Assembly (NCBI GenBank): GCA_964519935.1
Contig: CAZFLQ010000048.1
Location: forward strand, 1-18,019
DNA: 18,019 nt
DNA from: an uncultured Puniceicoccaceae bacterium
Lineage (GTDB): Bacteria > Verrucomicrobiota > Verrucomicrobiia > Opitutales > Puniceicoccaceae
Direction: 5' to 3'
Below are positions 5,961 through 14,510 of this stretch, piece after piece. Below the pieces are notes generated by a model that did not search any database, was not told where the DNA came from, and saw only the letters and a program-made list of their open reading frames with translations. How positions within the stretch are numbered: the first letter of the stretch is position 1; each line of letters starts with the position of its first letter. The translations under genes and the position numbers were made by a program.

Positions 5961-7130
5961 ATGAGTGTGCGCCGTTTTGTTTCCAGCCATGTAGCCGATT
6001 TGCCCCGATCCGGGATCCGGGATTTTTTCGCGATCGTTGCGCAGATGCCGGAGGCCATTTCGCTCGGAATCGGCGAGCCTGATTTTGTGACCCCGTGGCA
6101 CATTCGGGAGGCGGCGATCTATGCTCTCGAACGGGGCAAAACCTATTACACGGATAACCGGGGGCTGCTCTCTTTGCGAAAGGAAATTTCGCGCTATGTG
6201 GAGGGCTTTTTCGGGGTTGGCTACGATCCGGGGGAAGAGATCCTCGTGGCGGTGGGTGTTTCCGAAGCTCTTGATCTGGCATTGCGGGCGGTCCTGAATC
6301 CGGGAGACAAGGTGATTTACCATGAACCCTGTTATGTCAGCTACAGTCCGAGTATTGTGTTGGCGCATGGCGTTCCGGTCGGGGTGGCGACGACCCCGGA
6401 GGAGGGCTTTACGCTGCGGCCGGACCGGTTGATCGAGGCCTGGGAACCGGGATGCAAGGTGCTGATCCTGAATTTTCCGACCAACCCGACGGGCGGGACG
6501 GTAGGTCGGGATTCTCTGGAGGCGATTGCCCGGTTTGTGATCGAAAAGGATCTCCTGGTGATCTCGGACGAGATTTATTCGGAGCTGACCTACGATGGCG
6601 AACACAGCAGTATTGCGGCCCTGCCGGGGATGCGGGAGCGGACCCTGCTGTTGCACGGGTTTTCAAAGGCCTTTGCGATGACCGGGTTTCGGATCGGGTA
6701 TGGATGCGGACCGGCTGAACTGATTGAGGCGATGATGCGCGTCCATCAGTATTCGATGCTGTGTGCGCCGATTCTGAGCCAGGAGGCAGCGATCGAAGCG
6801 CTCCGTAACGGGGCGGAGAGCGTTGCGATGATGCGTGACCAGTATCGGCAGCGCCGGGATTTTATCGTGCGGCGGTTCCGGGAATGTGGTCTACCCTGCC
6901 ATCTGCCGAACGGAACCTTTTATGCCTTTCCGGAGATCGGGGGGACGGGGATGGACGAGGTGGCTTTTGCGAGAGGGTTGTTGGAGACAGAGAAAGTCGC
7001 AATGGTTCCGGGGACTGCCTTTGGGCCGACCGGGGCAGGGTATGTCCGGGCGAGTTTCAGCACGAGCTACCGGCGGATTATCGAGGCGACCGAACGGATC
7101 GAGCGCTATGTTGGAGAGGTATCCAAATAA
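5961..7130 (+). CDS. PLP-dependent aminotransferase, class I/II (AspC-like)
   Basis: 'LGIGEPDF', 'NFPTNPTG' and the PLP-lysine context 'HGFSKAFAMTGFRIGY'. Length 389 aa. Confidence 0.85.
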   Translation: MSVRRFVSSHVADLPRSGIRDFFAIVAQMPEAISLGIGEPDFVTPWHIREAAIYALERGKTYYTDNRGLLSLRKEISRYVEGFFGVGYDPGEEILVAVGVSEALDLALRAVLNPGDKVIYHEPCYVSYSPSIVLAHGVPVGVATTPEEGFTLRPDRLIEAWEPGCKVLILNFPTNPTGGTVGRDSLEAIARFVIEKDLLVISDEIYSELTYDGEHSSIAALPGMRERTLLLHGFSKAFAMTGFRIGYGCGPAELIEAMMRVHQYSMLCAPILSQEAAIEALRNGAESVAMMRDQYRQRRDFIVRRFRECGLPCHLPNGTFYAFPEIGGTGMDEVAFARGLLETEKVAMVPGTAFGPTGAGYVRASFSTSYRRIIEATERIERYVGEVSK

Positions 7131-8566
7131 TGAATACAGATGCAGGTGAACGGCAGGTTGTTCTGGTCGGACGTCCGAACGTGGGGAAGAGCCGATTGTT
7201 CAATCGTCTGGCGGGGAAACGAATTTCGATTGTCCATGACCTGCCGGGGGTGACCCGCGATATTGTGACCCATCCGCTGAAAGGTGGACGGGTGCTTGTG
7301 GACACGGGGGGACTGGGGCTGGTCGAGGGGGCGACCCCGGAGGTGCTGCGGGAGGCTGTGGAGACGCAGGTTTTTGTGGCGACGGAAACGGCCAGTCTGA
7401 TTCTTTTCGTACTCGACGTGCGCGAGGGGCTGACTCCGCTCGACGAGGAGATTGCGATGGAGTTGCGAAAGGCGCGCTGTCCGGTCCGGGTGGTTGTGAA
7501 CAAGTGCGATACGGAGGCACTCGATTTACGGGCGCTGGACCTCGGGAAGATTGGTTTTGGGGATGTCGCGCCGGTTTCGGCGGAGCATGATCGGGGAATT
7601 CGGGCACTGGAAAAATGGATCTTTGATGTGGTTCCGGCGGTTGAGGATGCGGCATCGGAGGAGGATCTCGATGCGCATCGGGTGTCGATCTGTTTTGCGG
7701 GAAAACCGAATGTCGGGAAATCCTCGTTGACCAATCGGTTACTGAAGGCGGAGCGGGTGATCGTGAGCGATGTGCCGGGGACGACGCGGGACGCGGTGCA
7801 GTTCAATCTCGATTGGACGACGCCGAACGGTCGGGAGTTTCTGTACCGTCTGCACGATACGGCGGGTTTGCGGGCAAAGCGGAAGATCGATTCGTCGATC
7901 GAGTATTTTTCGGCTTTGCGGACGAAGGAGGCGGTCGAGCGGAGCGATGTGGTGGTGTATCTACTTGACGCCCTGACAGGAGCGACGAAGCAGGACCAGC
8001 GTTTTGTCGGGGACGTTCTGGAGGCGGGTCGGGGTATGGTTCTGGCAGTGAACAAGTGGGACCTTGCGCTGGAAAGCTTTGCGACCGGTGGGGTGGATGG
8101 ATTTACCGATGAGAATGCCTTCACGAGGGCCTACGAGGCAGCACTGCGGAGAGAATTGTTCTTTTTGCCGGAGTGCCCGATCGTCTTTCTTTCCGCGATG
8201 GAGGGGCACGGAATCGACGCCATGATGACGGCGGTGCGGAAGGTTCACCGCGTGCAAAATACCCGTCTGGCGACGGGACCGTTGAACCGTAAAATTGGTG
8301 AGTTGTTCGAGGCAAATCCGCCGAAGGCGAAGGATGGCAAGCGCTTCAAGCTGTACTACACCGTTCAGACGGGGGTGGCGCCGATCAGCCTGAAGGTCTT
8401 TTGCAACAACCCGAAATTGCTCGACGACTCGTTTCGGAGGTATCTTGAAAAGGGATTGGTTAGCGGCTTCAAGCTGACGGGGGCGCCTCTGGCGATGAGG
8501 TTTGTCGGGAAAAGCCGGGAGAAAAACCCCTTTGTGTCGGCATCGGGCAAGCCGCTGAGAGGTTGA
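7130..8566 (+). CDS. der: Ribosome-associated GTPase Der (EngA)
   Basis: Two tandem GTPase domains ('GRPNVGKS' ... 'GKPNVGKSSL') plus a C-terminal KH-like region. The ATG at 7130 overlaps the aminotransferase stop (TAATG). The longer in-frame ORF in the track is a G-rich artefact. Confidence 0.9.
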   Translation: MNTDAGERQVVLVGRPNVGKSRLFNRLAGKRISIVHDLPGVTRDIVTHPLKGGRVLVDTGGLGLVEGATPEVLREAVETQVFVATETASLILFVLDVREGLTPLDEEIAMELRKARCPVRVVVNKCDTEALDLRALDLGKIGFGDVAPVSAEHDRGIRALEKWIFDVVPAVEDAASEEDLDAHRVSICFAGKPNVGKSSLTNRLLKAERVIVSDVPGTTRDAVQFNLDWTTPNGREFLYRLHDTAGLRAKRKIDSSIEYFSALRTKEAVERSDVVVYLLDALTGATKQDQRFVGDVLEAGRGMVLAVNKWDLALESFATGGVDGFTDENAFTRAYEAALRRELFFLPECPIVFLSAMEGHGIDAMMTAVRKVHRVQNTRLATGPLNRKIGELFEANPPKAKDGKRFKLYYTVQTGVAPISLKVFCNNPKLLDDSFRRYLEKGLVSGFKLTGAPLAMRFVGKSREKNPFVSASGKPLRG

Positions 8567-8836
8567 GGTCGCAGACATCCTGGTCTGGATGGAATTGGAA
8601 TGAACCTAAACGTTCGCGTGTCCGATTCTGGGCGCGACGAAAGAGCGGGCTTTCGAGTTTGATGAAGTTTTCCAAATCGAAATCGCTATCGGGTCTCGAA
8701 TCAGGGGAAGGCGAATCGATTTCGATCCCGATCCCGATTTCGACCAATAAGGAACCATAAAAGGCAGCCATCTTCAATGGTCAGGCCGACCCCTCGATCA
8801 TGAAGCCAGGCCCGGACATCGTGGTTTGGAGTGTGC

Positions 8837-8955
8837 GGGGCGCCGAAAAGGGATTGCAAATCCCTTCTCCATAGGGGGCGCCGAAAAGGGATTGCAAATC
8901 CCTTCTCCATAGGGGGGCGCCAAAAAGGGATTGCAAATCCCTTCTCCATAGGGGG
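8837..8955. repeat. Three tandem ~38-39 bp direct repeats, each with a perfect 8-bp inverted repeat (AAGGGATT-gca-AATCCCTT)
   Basis: Unit 'GGGCGCCGAAAAGGGATTGCAAATCCCTTCTCCATAG' occurs three times head-to-tail, with hairpins at about 8848-8866, 8886-8904 and 8925-8943. Confidence 0.9.
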
Positions 8956-8990
8956 TGGAGTCGGTGAGCGGACCTCCTGCGGTGGGCGTG

Positions 8991-10388
8991 TCAGGAGTTG
9001 GGTGGGGTTTGGTCGGGGTTTTGCGGGGGTGCGGTCGTGGGGACTGTTGGGTTGCCCATTTTCCCGAGAAATTCGGGGAGTTCGATCCCGACGTTGCGGG
9101 TTAGGTCGTGGATCGGGGGAATGGCCCCGGCGAGTCCGGAAACAAAGGAGGCGGTAGAGTTTTTGCCGTCGGCCCCGCGCCCGCCTTCCCAAACGGTGAT
9201 GTTGCCGATTTCGAGGTTGGAGATTGCCTTGACCTGTTCGGCAACGAGTTCGGGCAGTTTTTCGGTGATCATGAGGAGGGCAGCGAGTTCGGCGTTGCCT
9301 CCGGCGGCCTCGACGACCTTGGCGAGACCAGCGGCCTTTTCCTCGAGTTCGGAGCGGTTGCCCTTGGCCTCGGCCTCCATCATGGAGCGGATACCGTCGG
9401 CCTGACCCTGCTTCTCGATGCGGATCTTCTGAGCCTCGGCCTCGGCGAGGGTCTCGATCCGCTCCTTTTCGACGAGGGCGGGGACGACAACGTTGGCCTT
9501 TTGGGTGGCGCGGTCGCGTTCGGCGCGCTGGACCTCGGCGGTCTGCTCGGCGGCGTAAGCTTCCTCGAGGGCGCGGGCGCGGGCGACCTTTTCGGCGGCG
9601 GAGGCAGCGCGTTCGGCCTCGGCCTCGCGGGTACGGCGTTCAGAATTGGAGTTGGCGATTTCGACTTTGGAGAGGTTTTCCCCGGTGGTGGCCTCGGCGT
9701 CGGCACTGGCAACGGAAATCCGTTTGTCGCGATCGGCGCTGGCCGAACCGACCTCCCCGTCCCGGTTGGCCATGGATACTTTGACCTTGGCTTCATTGAT
9801 CGCTTTGCTGGAAGCCTCCTGGCCGAGGGCATCGATGTAGCCGGATTCGTCGGTAATGTCCTGAACGTTGACGTTAATCAGTCGCAGTCCGACTTTTTTG
9901 AGTTCGACCTCGACCCCGTTGGAAATGTTTTCAATCAGCTTGTCGCGGTCGGCGTTGATTTCCTCGATGTCCATCGTCGCGATGACAACGCGCATCTGGC
10001 CGAAGATGATATCCTTGGCAAGCTCCTTGATCTCGGTCAGGCCGAGTCCGAGAAGCCGTTCGGCGGCATTTTCCATCACCCCGGTTTCGGTCGAGATCCC
10101 AACGGTGAAAGTGGAGGGCGTGTTGACCCGAATGTTTTGTTTGGAGAGCGCACCCTGAAGGTTGATGTCAATCGGGAGGGGGGTGAGGTCGAGGAACTGG
10201 TAGTCCTGGATCACCGGCCAGATGAAGGAAGCACCACCATGGTAGCAGCGGGCAGACTCTCCGCCGCTAACTTTACCGTAAACGACAAGGATGCGGTCAG
10301 AGGGACAGCGTTTGTAGCGGGAGGCGAACGCAATGAGCGTTCCGAAAAGCGCGAGGGCAATCGCGACGAGGAAGATGAGGATGTCCAT
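8991..10388 (-). CDS. Flotillin-like SPFH/band-7 domain protein (YqiK/FloT family)
   Basis: N-terminal hydrophobic anchor 'MDILIFLVAIALALFGTLIAF', an SPFH domain, then a long E/A-rich coiled-coil ('EAEAERAASAAEKVARARALEEAYAAEQ'). The ORF also reaches an upstream ATG at 10499, but that N-extension is P/R-rich and would overlap the nfeD-like gene. Confidence 0.8.
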   Translation of the reverse strand: MDILIFLVAIALALFGTLIAFASRYKRCPSDRILVVYGKVSGGESARCYHGGASFIWPVIQDYQFLDLTPLPIDINLQGALSKQNIRVNTPSTFTVGISTETGVMENAAERLLGLGLTEIKELAKDIIFGQMRVVIATMDIEEINADRDKLIENISNGVEVELKKVGLRLINVNVQDITDESGYIDALGQEASSKAINEAKVKVSMANRDGEVGSASADRDKRISVASADAEATTGENLSKVEIANSNSERRTREAEAERAASAAEKVARARALEEAYAAEQTAEVQRAERDRATQKANVVVPALVEKERIETLAEAEAQKIRIEKQGQADGIRSMMEAEAKGNRSELEEKAAGLAKVVEAAGGNAELAALLMITEKLPELVAEQVKAISNLEIGNITVWEGGRGADGKNSTASFVSGLAGAIPPIHDLTRNVGIELPEFLGKMGNPTVPTTAPPQNPDQTPPNS

Positions 10389-10443: not shown

Positions 10444-11034
10444 TCAGACGACGGTTGTGGCGGTGGTCTCGGACACGACCGAGACGGCGTTGTTGCCAAT
10501 CACACCGACGATCTCGACGCGGGTGCGCGGGGGGATTTCAGAACTTTCGTCGGTGTAGGCGTCGATGATGCTGAGCCGGTTCTGGACCATGACCTCGACC
10601 TGTCCGGCTCCGCTGCGGGCGGCGGGAATGCGGATGTAAACCGAACCTCCGTTCCCGATCGCATTGTGGATGTCGATTGTTCCGGTGGTTTGAAGACGCA
10701 TCAGCAGCAGCATCACCCCGTAGATCGCAAACATCAGGGTGAGTCCAGACAGGGTCGCCCAAATCAGGGCAACCGGAAGGGAGGCACCCTGATTGAGAGC
10801 GATTCCGCCAACCCAGCCGAAGCCAGTGAAAAAGGCGGTGACGGTACGAAATGAAAGGATCCCAAGCCCAGTGGTGTGATCGGTGGCGGCACCGATGTCG
10901 GGCAGATCGGTAGAGTGTCCGCCGATCCCGATGATTGAAAGAATCAGATCGAAGAGCATCAAAGCAAGGGAGACAATGCCGATGCCGTAAAGAAGCTGTT
11001 TCTCGAAATCGAGACTGATCCACCAGTCAACCAT
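10444..11034 (-). CDS. NfeD/YqiJ-like membrane protein (flotillin-associated)
   Basis: Three predicted TM helices followed by a beta-rich OB-fold-like C-terminus ('GSVYIRIPAARSGAGQVEVMVQNRLSIIDAY'). Sits immediately upstream of, and co-oriented with, the flotillin gene, as in yqiJ-yqiK and yuaF-floT operons. Confidence 0.7.
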   Translation of the reverse strand: MVDWWISLDFEKQLLYGIGIVSLALMLFDLILSIIGIGGHSTDLPDIGAATDHTTGLGILSFRTVTAFFTGFGWVGGIALNQGASLPVALIWATLSGLTLMFAIYGVMLLLMRLQTTGTIDIHNAIGNGGSVYIRIPAARSGAGQVEVMVQNRLSIIDAYTDESSEIPPRTRVEIVGVIGNNAVSVVSETTATTVV

Positions 11035-11271: not shown

Positions 11272-12345
11272 ATGGATTTTGAATCAATCAACGGCTTAAT
11301 CGGGGACTATGAGGCTTGGCATGAGGCCTCGGTTGAACGGTTCGTGGGCCGTTTGCGCGAGGCTGAGGGGGTTGATCCGGTGATCGGGCGTTTTGGGGAG
11401 TATCTCCGGAGGCCGGGAAAGCGACTGCGTCCCCTGTTGTTGATTCTGGCGGCGGAGGCTGGTGGGTGTGGAGATCGTGGGATGGTGATGCCAGCAGCGT
11501 TTTCGGTCGAGGCGTTCCACACCTTCATCCTGATTCACGACGATGTCATTGACGAATCAGCCTCCCGCCGGGGCCGCCCGAGCCTTCATCGCGATCTTGT
11601 CGACGGGCTGGGGATGCCGTTGCGAAGGGGTGAGAGCCTGGCGGTTGTTCTGGGGGATCTCCTCTATGGCTATGCTCTCGAGGTACTCAATGAAGTAACG
11701 GCGGGACCGGGAATACGGGCGACAGCAATCCGGTATTTTTCGCGGGTTATTCAGGACACCGGGCTGGGGGAGGCGCTGGAGCTGAGCCTGGCGGAGCGTC
11801 CTCTGGCAGATGTGACGGAGGCGGCGATTGAGACCGTTTACCAGCTCAAGACGACCCGCTACACCTTCGAAGCACCGCTAGTTCTGGGGGCTGTTCTGAG
11901 CGGCCTGCCGGATGGTGCGCAGGAAGTTCTCGAACGGTATGCCCGCCCGGTGGGTAGGGCTTTTCAGATCGCGAATGATTTGCACGAGATTCGGGAAGTG
12001 ATCGAGGGGCGGACGGAGCTGGCCTACGATCTCTCGGGAGAGATTCGAACTCTCTATATGCTTCGGCTGATGGCGGCGGTTGGGGCGGGGGACGTTGAGC
12101 AAGTGGAACGTTGGGCAGGCGGTGAGGGAGAAGGGATAGCCGGGATTGTCGGACTTGTCCGAAGCGACAAAGGCGTGGAAATCTACGGGTCGCTGCGGGA
12201 GGAGGTTCTCGAGGGGTTCCGTCAGGGCAGGCAAATATTGGCGGCGGCAATAGACGAAGGGATTTTGCCGATCCGGTTTGCGTCAATTGCCGATCTTGTC
12301 GAGGCAAGGTTCGAGCACAGCGAGGCATTTGTATCCAAAAAATGA
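11272..12345 (+). CDS. trans-Isoprenyl diphosphate synthase (polyprenyl synthetase) family protein with degenerate second Asp-rich motif
   Basis: 'GKRLRPLLLILAAE' and an intact first Asp-rich motif 'LIHDDVIDESASRRGRPS', plus 'YQLKTTRYTFEAP'. The second motif is 'FQIANDLHEIRE', not DDxxD. The stop overlaps the polB start. Confidence 0.75.
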   Translation: MDFESINGLIGDYEAWHEASVERFVGRLREAEGVDPVIGRFGEYLRRPGKRLRPLLLILAAEAGGCGDRGMVMPAAFSVEAFHTFILIHDDVIDESASRRGRPSLHRDLVDGLGMPLRRGESLAVVLGDLLYGYALEVLNEVTAGPGIRATAIRYFSRVIQDTGLGEALELSLAERPLADVTEAAIETVYQLKTTRYTFEAPLVLGAVLSGLPDGAQEVLERYARPVGRAFQIANDLHEIREVIEGRTELAYDLSGEIRTLYMLRLMAAVGAGDVEQVERWAGGEGEGIAGIVGLVRSDKGVEIYGSLREEVLEGFRQGRQILAAAIDEGILPIRFASIADLVEARFEHSEAFVSKK

Positions 12346-14510
12346 ATACAAATGACGAATGCCTGGTCGGTCTCTGGGTTGATCCTGACGGGATCGTGAG
12401 GGAGGCCTGGAGGGATCGTTCGGGGCGGCGGACGGACCGGGAAGCCCGACTGTCTCCGCCGGTTTGGTGCAGTGCGGGGATTGCGGAAGAGTGGGAGCAG
12501 CGTGGCGGTGGGGGCACGGTCGTTGCGCTGGAAGGGGCGGGGGTCCTTGATCGGCGGATTACCTTTGGGGATCCGGCCGGGGCGGAGGCGTTTTTGAAGG
12601 AGCACCGGGGAACGGCCGAGGTGGAGGCATTGCGTCCGGCCGAGCACGCCTGGCTGGTGTTGAATCGCGGCCGGTTTTTCGAGGAGGGCACCTTGCGGCG
12701 TGTTCGGCGTTTGCAGTTGGATATCGAGACCGCAACGGGCGAGGGGAGGGCGTTCAGTGATCCGCACGAGCCGGAGGACCGGGTTCTCGCGATTGGGCTG
12801 AGGTTTGAGGGACGGAATGAGATCCTCGATTTGGGGGAAGAAACGGACGCGGCTGAGAGGGGGCTGCTGAAGCGGTTCGCCGAGCGTTTGTGTGAGATCG
12901 ATCCGGACACGATGGAAGGGCACAATATTTTCCGGTTTGACCTCGAATACCTGCGCGAGCGGTGTCGGCGTTATCGGTTAAAGCCAGAGTGGGGTCGGTT
13001 TGGGGAGATTGCCCGTTTTCGAAACAGCCGGATTCGGATCGCGGAACGGACGGTGGATTTCCCCCGCTGTGACGTTCCCGGTCGGACAGTGGTGGATACA
13101 TTTTTGTTGGTCCAGATTCACGATACGACCTCGCGGGAGCTGGAGGGCTACGGGCTGAAGGATGTCGCGGTGGCCTTTGGGGTAACCGATCCGGATGCGG
13201 GGGAACGGACCTATCTGCGGGGGGAGTTGATTGCGGATGCCTGGCGACGGCAGCGGGATGTGTTCCGGAAATATCTCGAGGATGACCTCCGCGAGACCGA
13301 GGGGGTGGCCTCGGTTTTGCTGCCGACCTATGTGGCACAGTGTCCCAACTTTCCGATGACGTTGCAGGAGATACTGCTTCGAGGGACGGCGGCGAAGGTT
13401 GATTCGGTTTTCCTCGAGGCGTATCAGCATGCGGATCAGGCTCTGCCAGTTCCGGGCAGTATCGAGCGATTCGAGGGTGGGTATAGCGGGAGTTTTGAGA
13501 CCGGGGTTTTCCGGCCGGTTTACCACTATGACGTGGCATCGCTCTACCCGAGCCTGCTATTGCAGATCGGGAGGAATCCGGTGGGGGATGACCTCGGGAC
13601 GTTCATCCCGACCCTCGAGCGGCTGCGGGCGGCCCGGCTGGAGTTCAAGCGAAGGGCGAGGGAGTCTACGGATCCGGAGGATGTGCGGGACTATGGGGCG
13701 CGTCAGGCGAGTTTCAAGATTCTGATCAATTCGTTTTACGGGTATCTCGGCTTTGCCGGGGCGCGTTTTGCGGACGGGAAACTGGCGGCAGAGGTTACCC
13801 GCCGGGGCCGGGAGCTGATCAAGCATTTGATTGGGGAATTGGGAGGGCTGGGGGTACGGATTCTGGAGGCGGACACGGACGGGATTTATGTGTGTCCGGA
13901 TGGCTATGCAGGTGGACCGGAGGACCTGTTGGGGGATCTTTCGGCGCGGTTGCCGGAGGGGATTGATCTGGAGTTGGGAGGCGTTTACGAGGCAATGTTC
14001 TGCTACAAGGCGAAAAACTACGCTCTCGCGACGGATGTTGGGATGGTGGTGCGGGGATCGGCCCTGCGCTCGCGGGGTACAGAGCCCTTTTTGCGGGAGC
14101 TGACGAGGCACTATTTAGCGGAGCGGCTCGGCCTCGAAACCCGTTCGACGCTCGACCTGGTCGAGGAAATGGGAACCGAAATCGAGGAACAGCGGATGCC
14201 GGTCGAGCAGTTGGCGAAGGCGGAGCACCTCGGGATGTCACCGACGGTCTACCGGAGCGGGGTAGAGGCTGGAACGAAGACCCGGCGGGCGGCACTGGAG
14301 GCGGCCTTGGGGATCGAGCCGCTCCCGAAACAGGGGGATCGGGTGGCCTATTACCTGCGAGAGGGTGATCGGTCGGAAAAGGCGGATTGGCAGCGGGCGG
14401 TTCCGGTTGAGGCCTACGATCGGGAGAGATGTCCCTATGATGCGGGTGCCTATCTGAAAAAGTTGCGGGCTTGGGCGCGGCGGTTTCCGCTCGAGCCGGA
14501 ACTGTTTTAG
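12342..14510 (+). CDS. polB: Family B DNA polymerase (DNA polymerase II-like) with 3'-5' exonuclease domain
   Basis: Exo I 'LDIETAT', Exo II 'HNIFRFDLEYL', Exo III 'YLEDD'; polymerase motif A 'YHYDVASLYPSLL', motif B 'KILINSFYGYLGF', motif C 'EADTDGIYV'. Length 722 aa. Confidence 0.85.
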   Translation: MNTNDECLVGLWVDPDGIVREAWRDRSGRRTDREARLSPPVWCSAGIAEEWEQRGGGGTVVALEGAGVLDRRITFGDPAGAEAFLKEHRGTAEVEALRPAEHAWLVLNRGRFFEEGTLRRVRRLQLDIETATGEGRAFSDPHEPEDRVLAIGLRFEGRNEILDLGEETDAAERGLLKRFAERLCEIDPDTMEGHNIFRFDLEYLRERCRRYRLKPEWGRFGEIARFRNSRIRIAERTVDFPRCDVPGRTVVDTFLLVQIHDTTSRELEGYGLKDVAVAFGVTDPDAGERTYLRGELIADAWRRQRDVFRKYLEDDLRETEGVASVLLPTYVAQCPNFPMTLQEILLRGTAAKVDSVFLEAYQHADQALPVPGSIERFEGGYSGSFETGVFRPVYHYDVASLYPSLLLQIGRNPVGDDLGTFIPTLERLRAARLEFKRRARESTDPEDVRDYGARQASFKILINSFYGYLGFAGARFADGKLAAEVTRRGRELIKHLIGELGGLGVRILEADTDGIYVCPDGYAGGPEDLLGDLSARLPEGIDLELGGVYEAMFCYKAKNYALATDVGMVVRGSALRSRGTEPFLRELTRHYLAERLGLETRSTLDLVEEMGTEIEEQRMPVEQLAKAEHLGMSPTVYRSGVEAGTKTRRAALEAALGIEPLPKQGDRVAYYLREGDRSEKADWQRAVPVEAYDRERCPYDAGAYLKKLRAWARRFPLEPELF

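Follow-up and report, generated by a model that had tools for sequence, protein, structure and literature searches.

A tandemly triplicated REP singlet beside a flotillin-like gene, and the TAWGGAG-tagged REP/REPIN-RAYT family of the Verrucomicrobiota to which it probably belongs

The tandem array between Der and the flotillin-like gene

The window, by which we mean the whole 18,019-nt NCBI MAG contig that was analysed, carries a Der/EngA GTPase gene and a flotillin-like gene that converge on a 424-bp gap, and this gap holds a tandem array of hairpin-bearing units. Judged by its proteins, the contig is Opitutales/Puniceicoccaceae-like, with flotillin and Der 80% and 76% identical to their counterparts in the Puniceicoccaceae MAG GCA_050330715.1, Der 52% identical to that of Puniceicoccus vermicola, and Der homologues beyond the close relatives of the window at about 53% identity or less. 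The array starts 36 nt past the stop codon of the flotillin-like gene (8991-8993, minus strand), of which it would occupy the 3' untranslated region, and the Der/EngA stop (8566, plus strand) lies 270 nt before it. The features of the locus are as follows.

7130..8566, plus strand: Der/EngA GTPase gene, running toward the gap; synteny with the closest relative stops at about 8541
8837..8955, minus strand: head-to-tail array of three predicted REP units, delimited by Tandem Repeats Finder and by three minus-strand nhmmer matches to the family profile (E about 1e-10 each)
8847..8873, minus strand: REP copy 3, with tail TAT, GGAG and hairpin 8848-8866
8874..8884: co-duplicated flank of 11 nt between copies 3 and 2, plus-strand GGGGGCGCCGA
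8885..8911, minus strand: REP copy 2, with tail TAT, GGAG and hairpin 8886-8904
8912..8923: co-duplicated flank of 12 nt between copies 2 and 1, plus-strand GGGGGGCGCCAA, with one extra G and one G>A
8924..8950, minus strand: REP copy 1, nearest flotillin, with tail TAT 8948-8950, GGAG 8944-8947 and hairpin 8925-8943, then T
8991..10388, minus strand: flotillin-like SPFH/Band_7 gene (Pfam PF01145, E 2e-25; an identical 465-aa protein, P0001, is in the protein collection)
10444..11034, minus strand: 196-aa ORF upstream of flotillin, the pair being conserved in relatives

The flotillin-like gene is given here from the ATG at 10388, a TTG at 10499 being also possible, and the 196-aa ORF upstream of it has no Pfam match. 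In exact look-ups, flotillin and this upstream ORF were not on record, and Der was found in a 1.5-kb Logan contig only; an identical Der is present in the run SRR7048222.

Tandem Repeats Finder reports a single array at 8837-8955, with a period of 38/39, 3.1 copies, 96-97% matches and a score of 222-224. Its copies (8837-8874, 8875-8913 and 8914-8955) differ at two points, a G>A change and an additional G, and all three contain a perfect hairpin, AAGGGATT-GCA-AATCCCTT, with an 8-bp stem and a 3-nt loop. The 19-nt palindrome AAGGGATTGCAAATCCCTT occurs exactly three times in the window, always in the array (0.01 occurrences expected from 200 shuffles), and is absent elsewhere in the window even with up to three mismatches. 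The repeat finder and the palindrome count thus bear out the three tandem hairpin repeats 3' of flotillin that a preliminary description of this DNA had noted, with periods of 38 and 39 nt in place of the 37-nt unit it had written out. The same description was right to set aside a CRISPR array, since the putative spacers are only 11-12 nt long and nearly identical; the Rfam CRISPR-DR match scores 16 bits against a gathering score of 42 bits, and a Pfam scan of the seven ORFs around the array found no cas-like genes.

The array has a polarity. Its tag-first orientation is found on the minus strand, the sense strand of flotillin, and read in this direction each unit holds a 27-28-nt core, TATGGAG-AAGGGATT-TGC-AATCCCTT-T, with the GGAG of copy 1 beginning 43 nt past the flotillin stop. 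The 11-nt flank GGGGGCGCCGA lies outside the consensus of the family described below, and what the array has in common with other loci is limited to the core (matches of 25-28 nt at 100% identity, reaching 31 nt at 97%), so that the array can be read as one REP singlet which was triplicated together with its flank. The 11-12 nt between the REPs of the window are hence local sequence, duplicated along with the REP. Profile and tblastn searches of the 18-kb contig found no further REP copy, even degenerate, and no RAYT gene; both further copies and a RAYT would be expected elsewhere in the genome from which the window derives.

A dispersed family of tagged hairpins and its transposase

Outside the contig, the core is widely dispersed. 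An exact 24-mer comprising the hairpin and the adjoining CTCC was found in 14 metagenome contigs, with one match each, and in no viral contig. A pattern with the window-specific CCRA prefix gave no match in 185,579 representative genomes, a result that reflects the excessive specificity of the pattern to the window and not a real absence, since the family-level pattern AAGGGRTTNNNAAYCCCTTCTCC, run on representative genomes, matched at least 114 stretches in about 40 assemblies, where some four matches would be expected by chance according to an estimate made by hand. Among the matches listed, 112 belong to the Verrucomicrobiota, with carriers that include MAGs of Akkermansiaceae, Verrucomicrobiaceae, Luteolibacter, Haloferula and Prosthecobacter as well as the isolate 'Verrucomicrobiaceae bacterium E54', and copies lie on as many as 10 or more separate contigs of a single MAG. 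The two outliers come from MAGs of Rikenellaceae and Clostridia; they have no tail, their stems are mismatched, and they are attributed to chance. The search for other copies that had been proposed for this repeat was therefore negative within the 18-kb contig and richly positive beyond it, and the local minisatellite that the preliminary description had kept as a fallback does not agree with a core that recurs in many other genomes.

The anatomy of the family was established from a census of 223 hairpin sites in 130 sources (943 kb), each site being oriented by its asymmetric flank, and is summarized in the profile AATAWGGAGAAGGGRTTNNNAAYCCCTTT and the consensus (AA)TAW-GGAG-AAGGGRTT-NNN-AAYCCCTT-T. 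The 5' tail, (AA)TAWGGAG, is unpaired and present at one end only, which gives the REP its orientation. Two features of the census stand apart from the way in which sites were retrieved. On the one hand, the TA of the tail (positions -16/-15) is about 90% conserved among 200 sites, yet it was absent from the search patterns. On the other hand, stem pair +-4 is A.T in 82 sites, G.C in 106 and T.A in 4, with non-Watson-Crick combinations in only 8/200, and the scan patterns never tied R to Y at this pair. In a non-redundant alignment (A1), 91.8% of the cells are paired and double-sided changes are seen at four pairs (50 cells), values reached by none of 500 shuffles (0/500), and the signal vanishes once the register is slid. 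Furthermore, positions +-10, 12 and 13 place G opposite U or C, so that the stem can be extended on the tag-first strand only, an asymmetry that favours a single-stranded hairpin, of DNA or RNA, over a duplex protein site. Loop sequences vary among the sites (TGC 81, TGA 51, TTC 29, and others). Neither GTAG nor CGTC adjoins the stem, the tag being TAWGGAG instead.

The sites of the family are mostly extragenic, with 126/143 clusters outside called ORFs, and are arranged in a limited number of ways. Most frequent is the inverted doublet whose tails face outward ('><'), of which there are 54 clear cases and 13 more with a degenerate partner; it constitutes a REPIN-like element of about 95 bp, with a mode of 54-55 bp in centre spacing and a few recognizable spacer subfamilies. 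Singlets number 64, and the tails-inward arrangement ('<>') was not found in any of the 143 clusters. Direct arrangements are rare, being limited to L064 (32 bp, with two unlike stem variants), L113 (60-bp period) and L034 (120-bp period), the periods of the last two including flank. The array in the window ('<<<') is not a doublet and is the sole three-copy direct array (1/143 clusters).

Several other identities were considered for the repeat and discarded. A resemblance to the tRNA-Cys anticodon arm (AGGGA-TTGCAAA-TCCCT) finds no tRNA call in ARAGORN and a loop that varies across the family, and a Y-U-NNN-R-N loop arises on either strand simply from the palindrome. A mini-ORF beginning 'MEKGFAIPF...' would depend on an ATG present in only 89/200 tails (59 have TAA), with frames and stops unconserved. 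As regards known RNA families, there are only sub-threshold matches to miRNA and CRISPR-DR models, which reflect the palindrome.

RAYTs are enzymes of the Y1/HUH class that recognize REP hairpins on single-stranded DNA and are thought to mobilize REPs. Clustering of the ORFs in the 943 kb of REP-bearing loci yielded one family of about 200 aa (200-240 aa as called), present in six assemblies, in all of which the predicted RAYT gene has inverted doublets on both sides, 10-20 nt away. A tblastn search added three partial copies at contig ends that are likewise doublet-flanked, so that the homologues are directly flanked by doublets at 9/9 loci, six of them on both sides. The predicted protein contains the HUH motif FVIMPNHVHVLF and the stretch LWQREYWDRLIR...NYIFKNP, scores 30-39 bits against Pfam Y1_Tnp PF01797 (gathering cutoff 23 bits) and has NF047646 REP_Tyr_transpos as its best NCBIfam family (E 1.7e-19), at 70.1 bits where the equivalog cutoff is 80. 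Its sole match in the PDB is E. coli TnpA_REP in a REP-bound structure (4ER8), with which it aligns at 'NHVHV' (the HUH motif) and at the Tyr of 'NYIFKNP'. In a large protein collection, homologues with E <= 1e-20 number over 2,400, many bearing the JGI name 'REP element-mobilizing transposase RayT', and the close homologues with a name are all of Verrucomicrobiales type.

A tagged hairpin, its dispersal, the inverted doublets and a flanked Y1 transposase, taken together, are the defining traits of REP/REPIN-RAYT systems (PMC3116915; PMC3337134; PMC3733652). The suggestion of a small REP-like repeat family is in this way upheld by the dispersed copies, the stem covariation and the flanked RAYT, and the family is a newly documented REP family, with a TAWGGAG tag and a RAYT, in the Verrucomicrobiota. 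The most probable reading of the window, to which we assign a probability of roughly 0.8, is that its array consists of a singlet of this family that was tandemly tripled together with its flank, a generic 3'-hairpin effect being its likeliest role.

Gene 3' ends and the terminator question

On the flotillin-sense strand, each unit is predicted to fold at -14.0 kcal/mol into an 11-bp stem (GAGAAGGGAUU/AAUCCCUUUUC) that includes one G.U pair, as compared with -9.7 kcal/mol at best for the opposite strand. The preliminary description had seen UUUUCGG after each stem and had proposed a triple weak intrinsic terminator. The U-run is there in part, since the 8-bp stem takes in two of its U's; the copy closest to flotillin has UUUUUGG. 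Counting the 8-bp stem only, UUC or UUU is left after it, and the 11-bp stem absorbs the U's and has GGCGCCCC downstream. As for the proposed terminator, a consensus terminator scan called neither the array hairpins nor any canonical terminator downstream of Der or flotillin, and the 11-bp stem has no U-tract after it. The array thus lacks the usual form of an intrinsic terminator, taken here as a G+C-rich stem directly before a U-tract that has about five or more U within 8 nt.

A dedicated triple intrinsic (Rho-independent) terminator of the flotillin operon, whose likeness to other sequences would be secondary, is accordingly a quite unlikely identity for the array and is not supported by its predicted features. 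The position of the array, sense to flotillin and 36-43 nt past its stop codon, would suit such a function, as would the lack of any other terminator-like site after flotillin or Der, the GC-rich hairpin with a T-run that the flotillin genes of two relatives (L132 and L133) bear at the equivalent place, the stability of the hairpins (-14 kcal/mol) and the five U's of the copy nearest flotillin. The scan is silent on all three hairpins, however, the stems have only three G.C pairs, and in the favoured 11-bp stem the U's that the 8-bp stem would leave over are themselves paired. Moreover, a 27-nt sequence with an asymmetric tail that recurs at more than 100 unrelated sites, usually in inverted doublets, and that flanks a transposase, is not what a terminator of one operon predicts. 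The REPs of the family do resemble intrinsic terminators in placing a stem-loop on the sense strand just past a stop codon, with a few U's on its 3' side, but they differ from them in an AT-rich stem (3 G.C pairs) that lacks a 7-9-nt U-tract after it, in a sequence conserved across unrelated genes and in their occurrence in both orientations and as inverted doublets.

The wider family is nevertheless a family of gene 3' ends. The copies lie at a median of 8.5 nt from the nearest 3' end and 146 nt from the nearest 5' end, and divergent gaps are under-represented (9/98 clusters versus 70/376 background gaps), counts that rest on a simple home-made ORF caller and are indicative only. A strong orientation bias toward the sense strand is seen only in copies directly next to a stop codon, and among singlets far from one, in co-directional gaps, 4 are sense versus 10 antisense; given this antisense excess farther off, the family is not read as one of dedicated terminators. 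The tail triplet among 200 REPs is TAT in 89, TAA in 59 and TAG in 10, and the stop codon of a sense-strand gene falls within the tail region in 55/200, a figure that is likewise only indicative, as a tail TAA ends any ORF in its frame. Because the TAA of the tail partly builds in the sense bias, this bias was not used as evidence of function. The stop-abutting habit does not hold in the window, where the first REP lies 43 nt from the stop. Liang and colleagues are said to have found, in 2015, that REPs lie close to stop codons.

One orthologous site shows how an element may come to adjoin a stop codon. The upstream gene ends in an identical ...GAAGTCCGCTAA in L081, which lacks the element, and in L003, which has it, and in L003, L002 and L090 the REPIN begins immediately past TAA. 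In this comparison of occupied (L002, L003, L090) and empty (L081) sites the native TAA is retained and the flanks are strongly diverged; at least there, the element lies directly 3' of a native stop codon. Transposons of the IS200/IS605 group insert 3' of a short target, and the TAA-adjoining REPIN recalls that behaviour. It is also reminiscent of the GTAG REPs, which provide TAG stops (PMC3733652).

For the window, a partial contribution of the array to termination or to protection of the 3' end is plausible. Read-through from the flotillin operon into the array would let each copy fold as an 11-bp hairpin, and such hairpins may exert the generic REP effect of a barrier to 3'->5' exonucleases that stabilizes the mRNA; read-through into antisense Der would be blocked at most in part. 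In E. coli, REP hairpins block 3'->5' exonucleases. Stabilization and turnover of mRNA and partial termination are among the REP roles named in two papers on the subject (PMC3733652; PMC3479197).

Origin of the array and its place among known repeats

Runs of four to six G's delimit the unit on the plus strand, in the order ...GTGC/GGGGCGCC...CCATAG/GGGGCGCC...CCATAG/GGGGGTGGAG, with slashes at the bounds of the units, and it is at this microhomology that slippage or unequal exchange is inferred. A singlet REP with about 11 bp of adjoining DNA would have been amplified to three head-to-tail copies by replication slippage or by unequal exchange between the flanking G4-6 runs, perhaps with help from the hairpin, and the G-run of the co-duplicated flank would probably have supplied the microhomology at which the slippage took place. 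Tandem REPIN clusters 'including the flanking sequences' are known in Pseudomonas (PMC3116915), and a singleton reiterated in tandem with its flanking DNA is a type of REP cluster on record (PMC3733652).

Other origins have to be weighed against the triplicated REP singlet. The doublets resemble elements of about 95 bp with terminal inverted repeats of 27-31 nt and a near-invariant TA on each side, as would befit non-autonomous MITEs of a DDE transposon (for instance a TA-duplicating one of the IS630/Tc1 kind), in which case the window would hold three copies of one terminal inverted repeat. This is very unlikely, since Y1/RAYT is the only protein that recurrently adjoins the elements in 943 kb, bracketed by doublets in 9/9 cases, and no recurrent DDE transposase was seen in those REP-bearing loci; in addition, each arm forms a hairpin whose stem shows compensatory changes, which fits the recognition of single-stranded DNA by a Y1 enzyme, and at the one orthologous site the element follows a native TAA directly, in the manner of an IS200/IS605-type insertion. 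It is extremely improbable that the array is a local set of sites for a dimeric DNA-binding protein (an operator, or sites for a nucleoid protein or gyrase) selected at this locus. A perfect 19-bp dyad every 38-39 bp, in a convergent gap where positive supercoils build up, has the look of one, and E. coli REP/BIMEs do bind protein partners, namely IHF, gyrase and Pol I. Recruitment of IHF is also among the REP roles given in PMC3479197. Against this, the position of the array is 3' to Der and flotillin alike and far from any promoter, variation in the loop and stem preserves base pairing and not base identity, and the G.U-compatible extension (+-10, 12, 13) is found on one strand only. The locus-specific protein-binding array entertained in the preliminary description is thus unlikely, given also that the same sequence is dispersed.

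The synteny of the locus raises the question of whether the contig is sound. The closest relative (80% nucleotide identity) is syntenic with the contig exactly as far as the 3' end of Der, and the array hence marks a lineage-specific junction. The Der-flotillin junction is absent from the flotillin relatives (L130-L133) and the Der relatives (L134-L138), and these offer no comparable empty site. An assembly artefact or chimeric join at the array would account for a break at precisely this point, as well as for the separate contigs on which Der and flotillin lie in the nearest named MAG, GCA_050330715.1, and repeats are typical sites of misjoins; it is nonetheless highly improbable, because both sides of the array are nearest to that one Puniceicoccaceae MAG (80% and 76%), the units are distinguished by one substitution and one indel, unlike what a collapsed or cycled de Bruijn path would give, the array of 119 bp can be spanned by single reads, and the Der side has 270 bp of unique sequence, the first 51 nt of which are matched at 96% by an independent Logan contig.

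The distribution of the family across lineages bears on a further alternative. The relatives of the REP and the RAYT that carry a family or genus label are all Verrucomicrobiales among the matches listed, some having class-level labels only, and no REP of the family was found in about 150 kb (partly redundant) of the closest Puniceicoccaceae relatives. Carrier genomes have, by a rough census estimate, about one extra REP cluster per 65 kb, so that this absence is weak evidence. The 27-28-nt REP is 100% identical between the contig and many Verrucomicrobiales genomes, with no flank in common, and the few proteins that can be compared between the contig and the Verrucomicrobiales carriers are 33-36% identical. 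We regard it as unlikely, if conceivable, that a stray REP or a REPIN-RAYT system has moved from one order to another, or that a host function at gene 3' ends keeps the hairpin, together with its stop-adjoining TAW tail, near-invariant and the triplication was selected for that function. REPIN-RAYT systems are held in the prevailing view to be inherited strictly vertically, and a spread across orders would run against that view.

As a member of a REP/REPIN-RAYT family, the array can be compared with the systems of the Proteobacteria, exemplified by E. coli (REP/BIME with TnpA_REP/RayT) and by the REPINs of Pseudomonas fluorescens SBW25. They have in common a short hairpin with an unpaired tag at one end, extragenic copies that are numerous in each genome and form mostly inverted doublets with some singlets, a RAYT gene flanked by the elements and tandem clusters that include flanking DNA. 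The family described here differs from them in having TAWGGAG in place of GTAG, a perfect 8-bp stem with a 3-nt loop and a host phylum, the Verrucomicrobiota, of its own; its RAYT, of about 200 aa, has an N-terminal extension of about 90 aa and falls below the NCBIfam equivalog cutoff, and the window itself holds a head-to-tail trimer of singlets with units only 11-12 nt apart.

GTAG and CGTC are two described REP superfamilies, the former having a family in the verrucomicrobium Opitutus terrae, and GTAG REPs supply the TAG stops of flanking ORFs (PMC3733652). The present family shares with both superfamilies its range of arrangements (singletons, HH, TT and HT dimers, and tandem clusters with flanks) and a tag that often supplies or abuts the stop of a flanking ORF (PMC3733652), here in 55/200 REPs. 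It departs from them in that the stop is a TAA or TAG in the TAW triplet upstream of GGAG and in that neither of the two tags is present. A TAWGGAG family was not found in the text of Di Nocera et al. (2013; PMC3733652), nor was any description of one in the literature searched, but protein annotation already labels its RAYT automatically as RayT; the same literature did not link REPs to Akkermansiaceae, Luteolibacter, Prosthecobacter or Verrucomicrobiales. Lastly, the array is similar to intergenic minisatellites such as the mycobacterial MIRU-VNTR in its tandem intergenic units of about 40 bp and a copy number that is probably variable, but its unit is a dispersed hairpin element with its flank, and not a locus-specific sequence.

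An unexplained repeat thus becomes an identified element, and a REP/REPIN-RAYT family that is neither GTAG nor CGTC is added in a phylum where such systems have barely been described. In practical terms, hairpins of this kind are best masked or annotated as REPs, and not as terminators, sRNAs or CRISPR-like arrays, and REPs can break contigs and cause misjoins when MAGs are assembled. The tail and the 8-bp stem provide a defined substrate for RAYT tests outside the Proteobacteria, and the near-identity of REPs across orders, together with element starts at stop codons, offers modest leads for the population biology of REPINs. The array itself is a bacterial repeat of a common type, from a phylum that has received little study.

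Array folding and the Der–flotillin junction

Every co-duplicated inter-REP spacer of the head-to-tail REP array (window 8837-8955) contains the self-complementary hexamer GGCGCC, and in the predicted folds the spacers of adjacent units pair with each other and enclose a REP hairpin, generating a branched structure with a z-score of -3.4 on the minus strand versus -1.8 on the plus strand. On these predictions, the spacer–spacer branched structure is probably a by-product of duplication.

When the region around the array (window ~8541-8990) was compared with the flotillin and Der loci of related genomes (L134 2658-3414 and L131/L135), the closest relative presented 80% nucleotide identity across the aminotransferase and Der genes, with synteny stopping at the 3' end of Der and a convergent HAD hydrolase located 18 nt past it. 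In the nearest named MAG (GCA_050330715.1), Der and flotillin lie on separate contigs. This arrangement and the loss of synteny at the Der 3' end hence place the REP array at a junction, resulting from rearrangement or, possibly, from assembly.

The Der–flotillin gap also harbors an imperfect palindrome unrelated to the array (window 8677-8743, and 8723-8738). Its 17-nt arms (TCGAAATCGCTATCGGG / CCCGATCCCGATTTCGA), separated by 33 nt, show 88% complementarity, and a CGATCC micro-repeat (x2.7) forms part of the palindrome; it has no T-run, and its comparison with Rfam returned nothing above noise. Elsewhere in the window, the 722-aa ORF listed below was oddly assigned, in 90% identity clustering, to a cluster represented by a 55-aa Streptomyces hypothetical protein, a grouping that is probably a clustering artefact.

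12342-14510, +, 722-aa ORF with the polymerase (PF00136) and exonuclease (PF03104) domains of family-B DNA polymerases

RAYT genes and direct REP arrangements

In six loci from other genomes, REP doublets flank on both sides a gene encoding a RAYT (Y1/HUH transposase).

L033 2151-2738, (-), RAYT gene
L119 2351-2938, RAYT gene
L076 3949-4536, RAYT gene
L021 637-1224, RAYT gene
L059 6985-7572, RAYT gene
L089 6278-6865, RAYT gene

RAYT reading frames extend into the adjoining REP, which encodes a C-terminal '...WRRDFQSLS', and in L089 the REP loop supplies the TGA that ends the frame. Another locus (L064 5885-5945) carries two REPs arranged head to tail and spaced 32 bp apart. Their stem variants are distinct (GGGGCTT/AGCCCC and GGGATT/AATCCC), indicating that direct arrangements can originate by routes besides simple local duplication.

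REP tails and native stop codons

Across the REP-bearing loci (L002-L129), the REP tail has a conserved TAW triplet that frequently constitutes or adjoins the upstream gene's stop codon, and the tail contains the sense-gene stop in 55 of 200 REPs.

L002 1290-1300, TAW tail/stop codon
L003 4315-4325, TAW tail/stop codon
L081 4800-4810, TAA stop codon in the gap lacking the element

The same TAA is kept in L081, an orthologous gap devoid of the element, so the REPIN lies directly 3' of a native stop codon.
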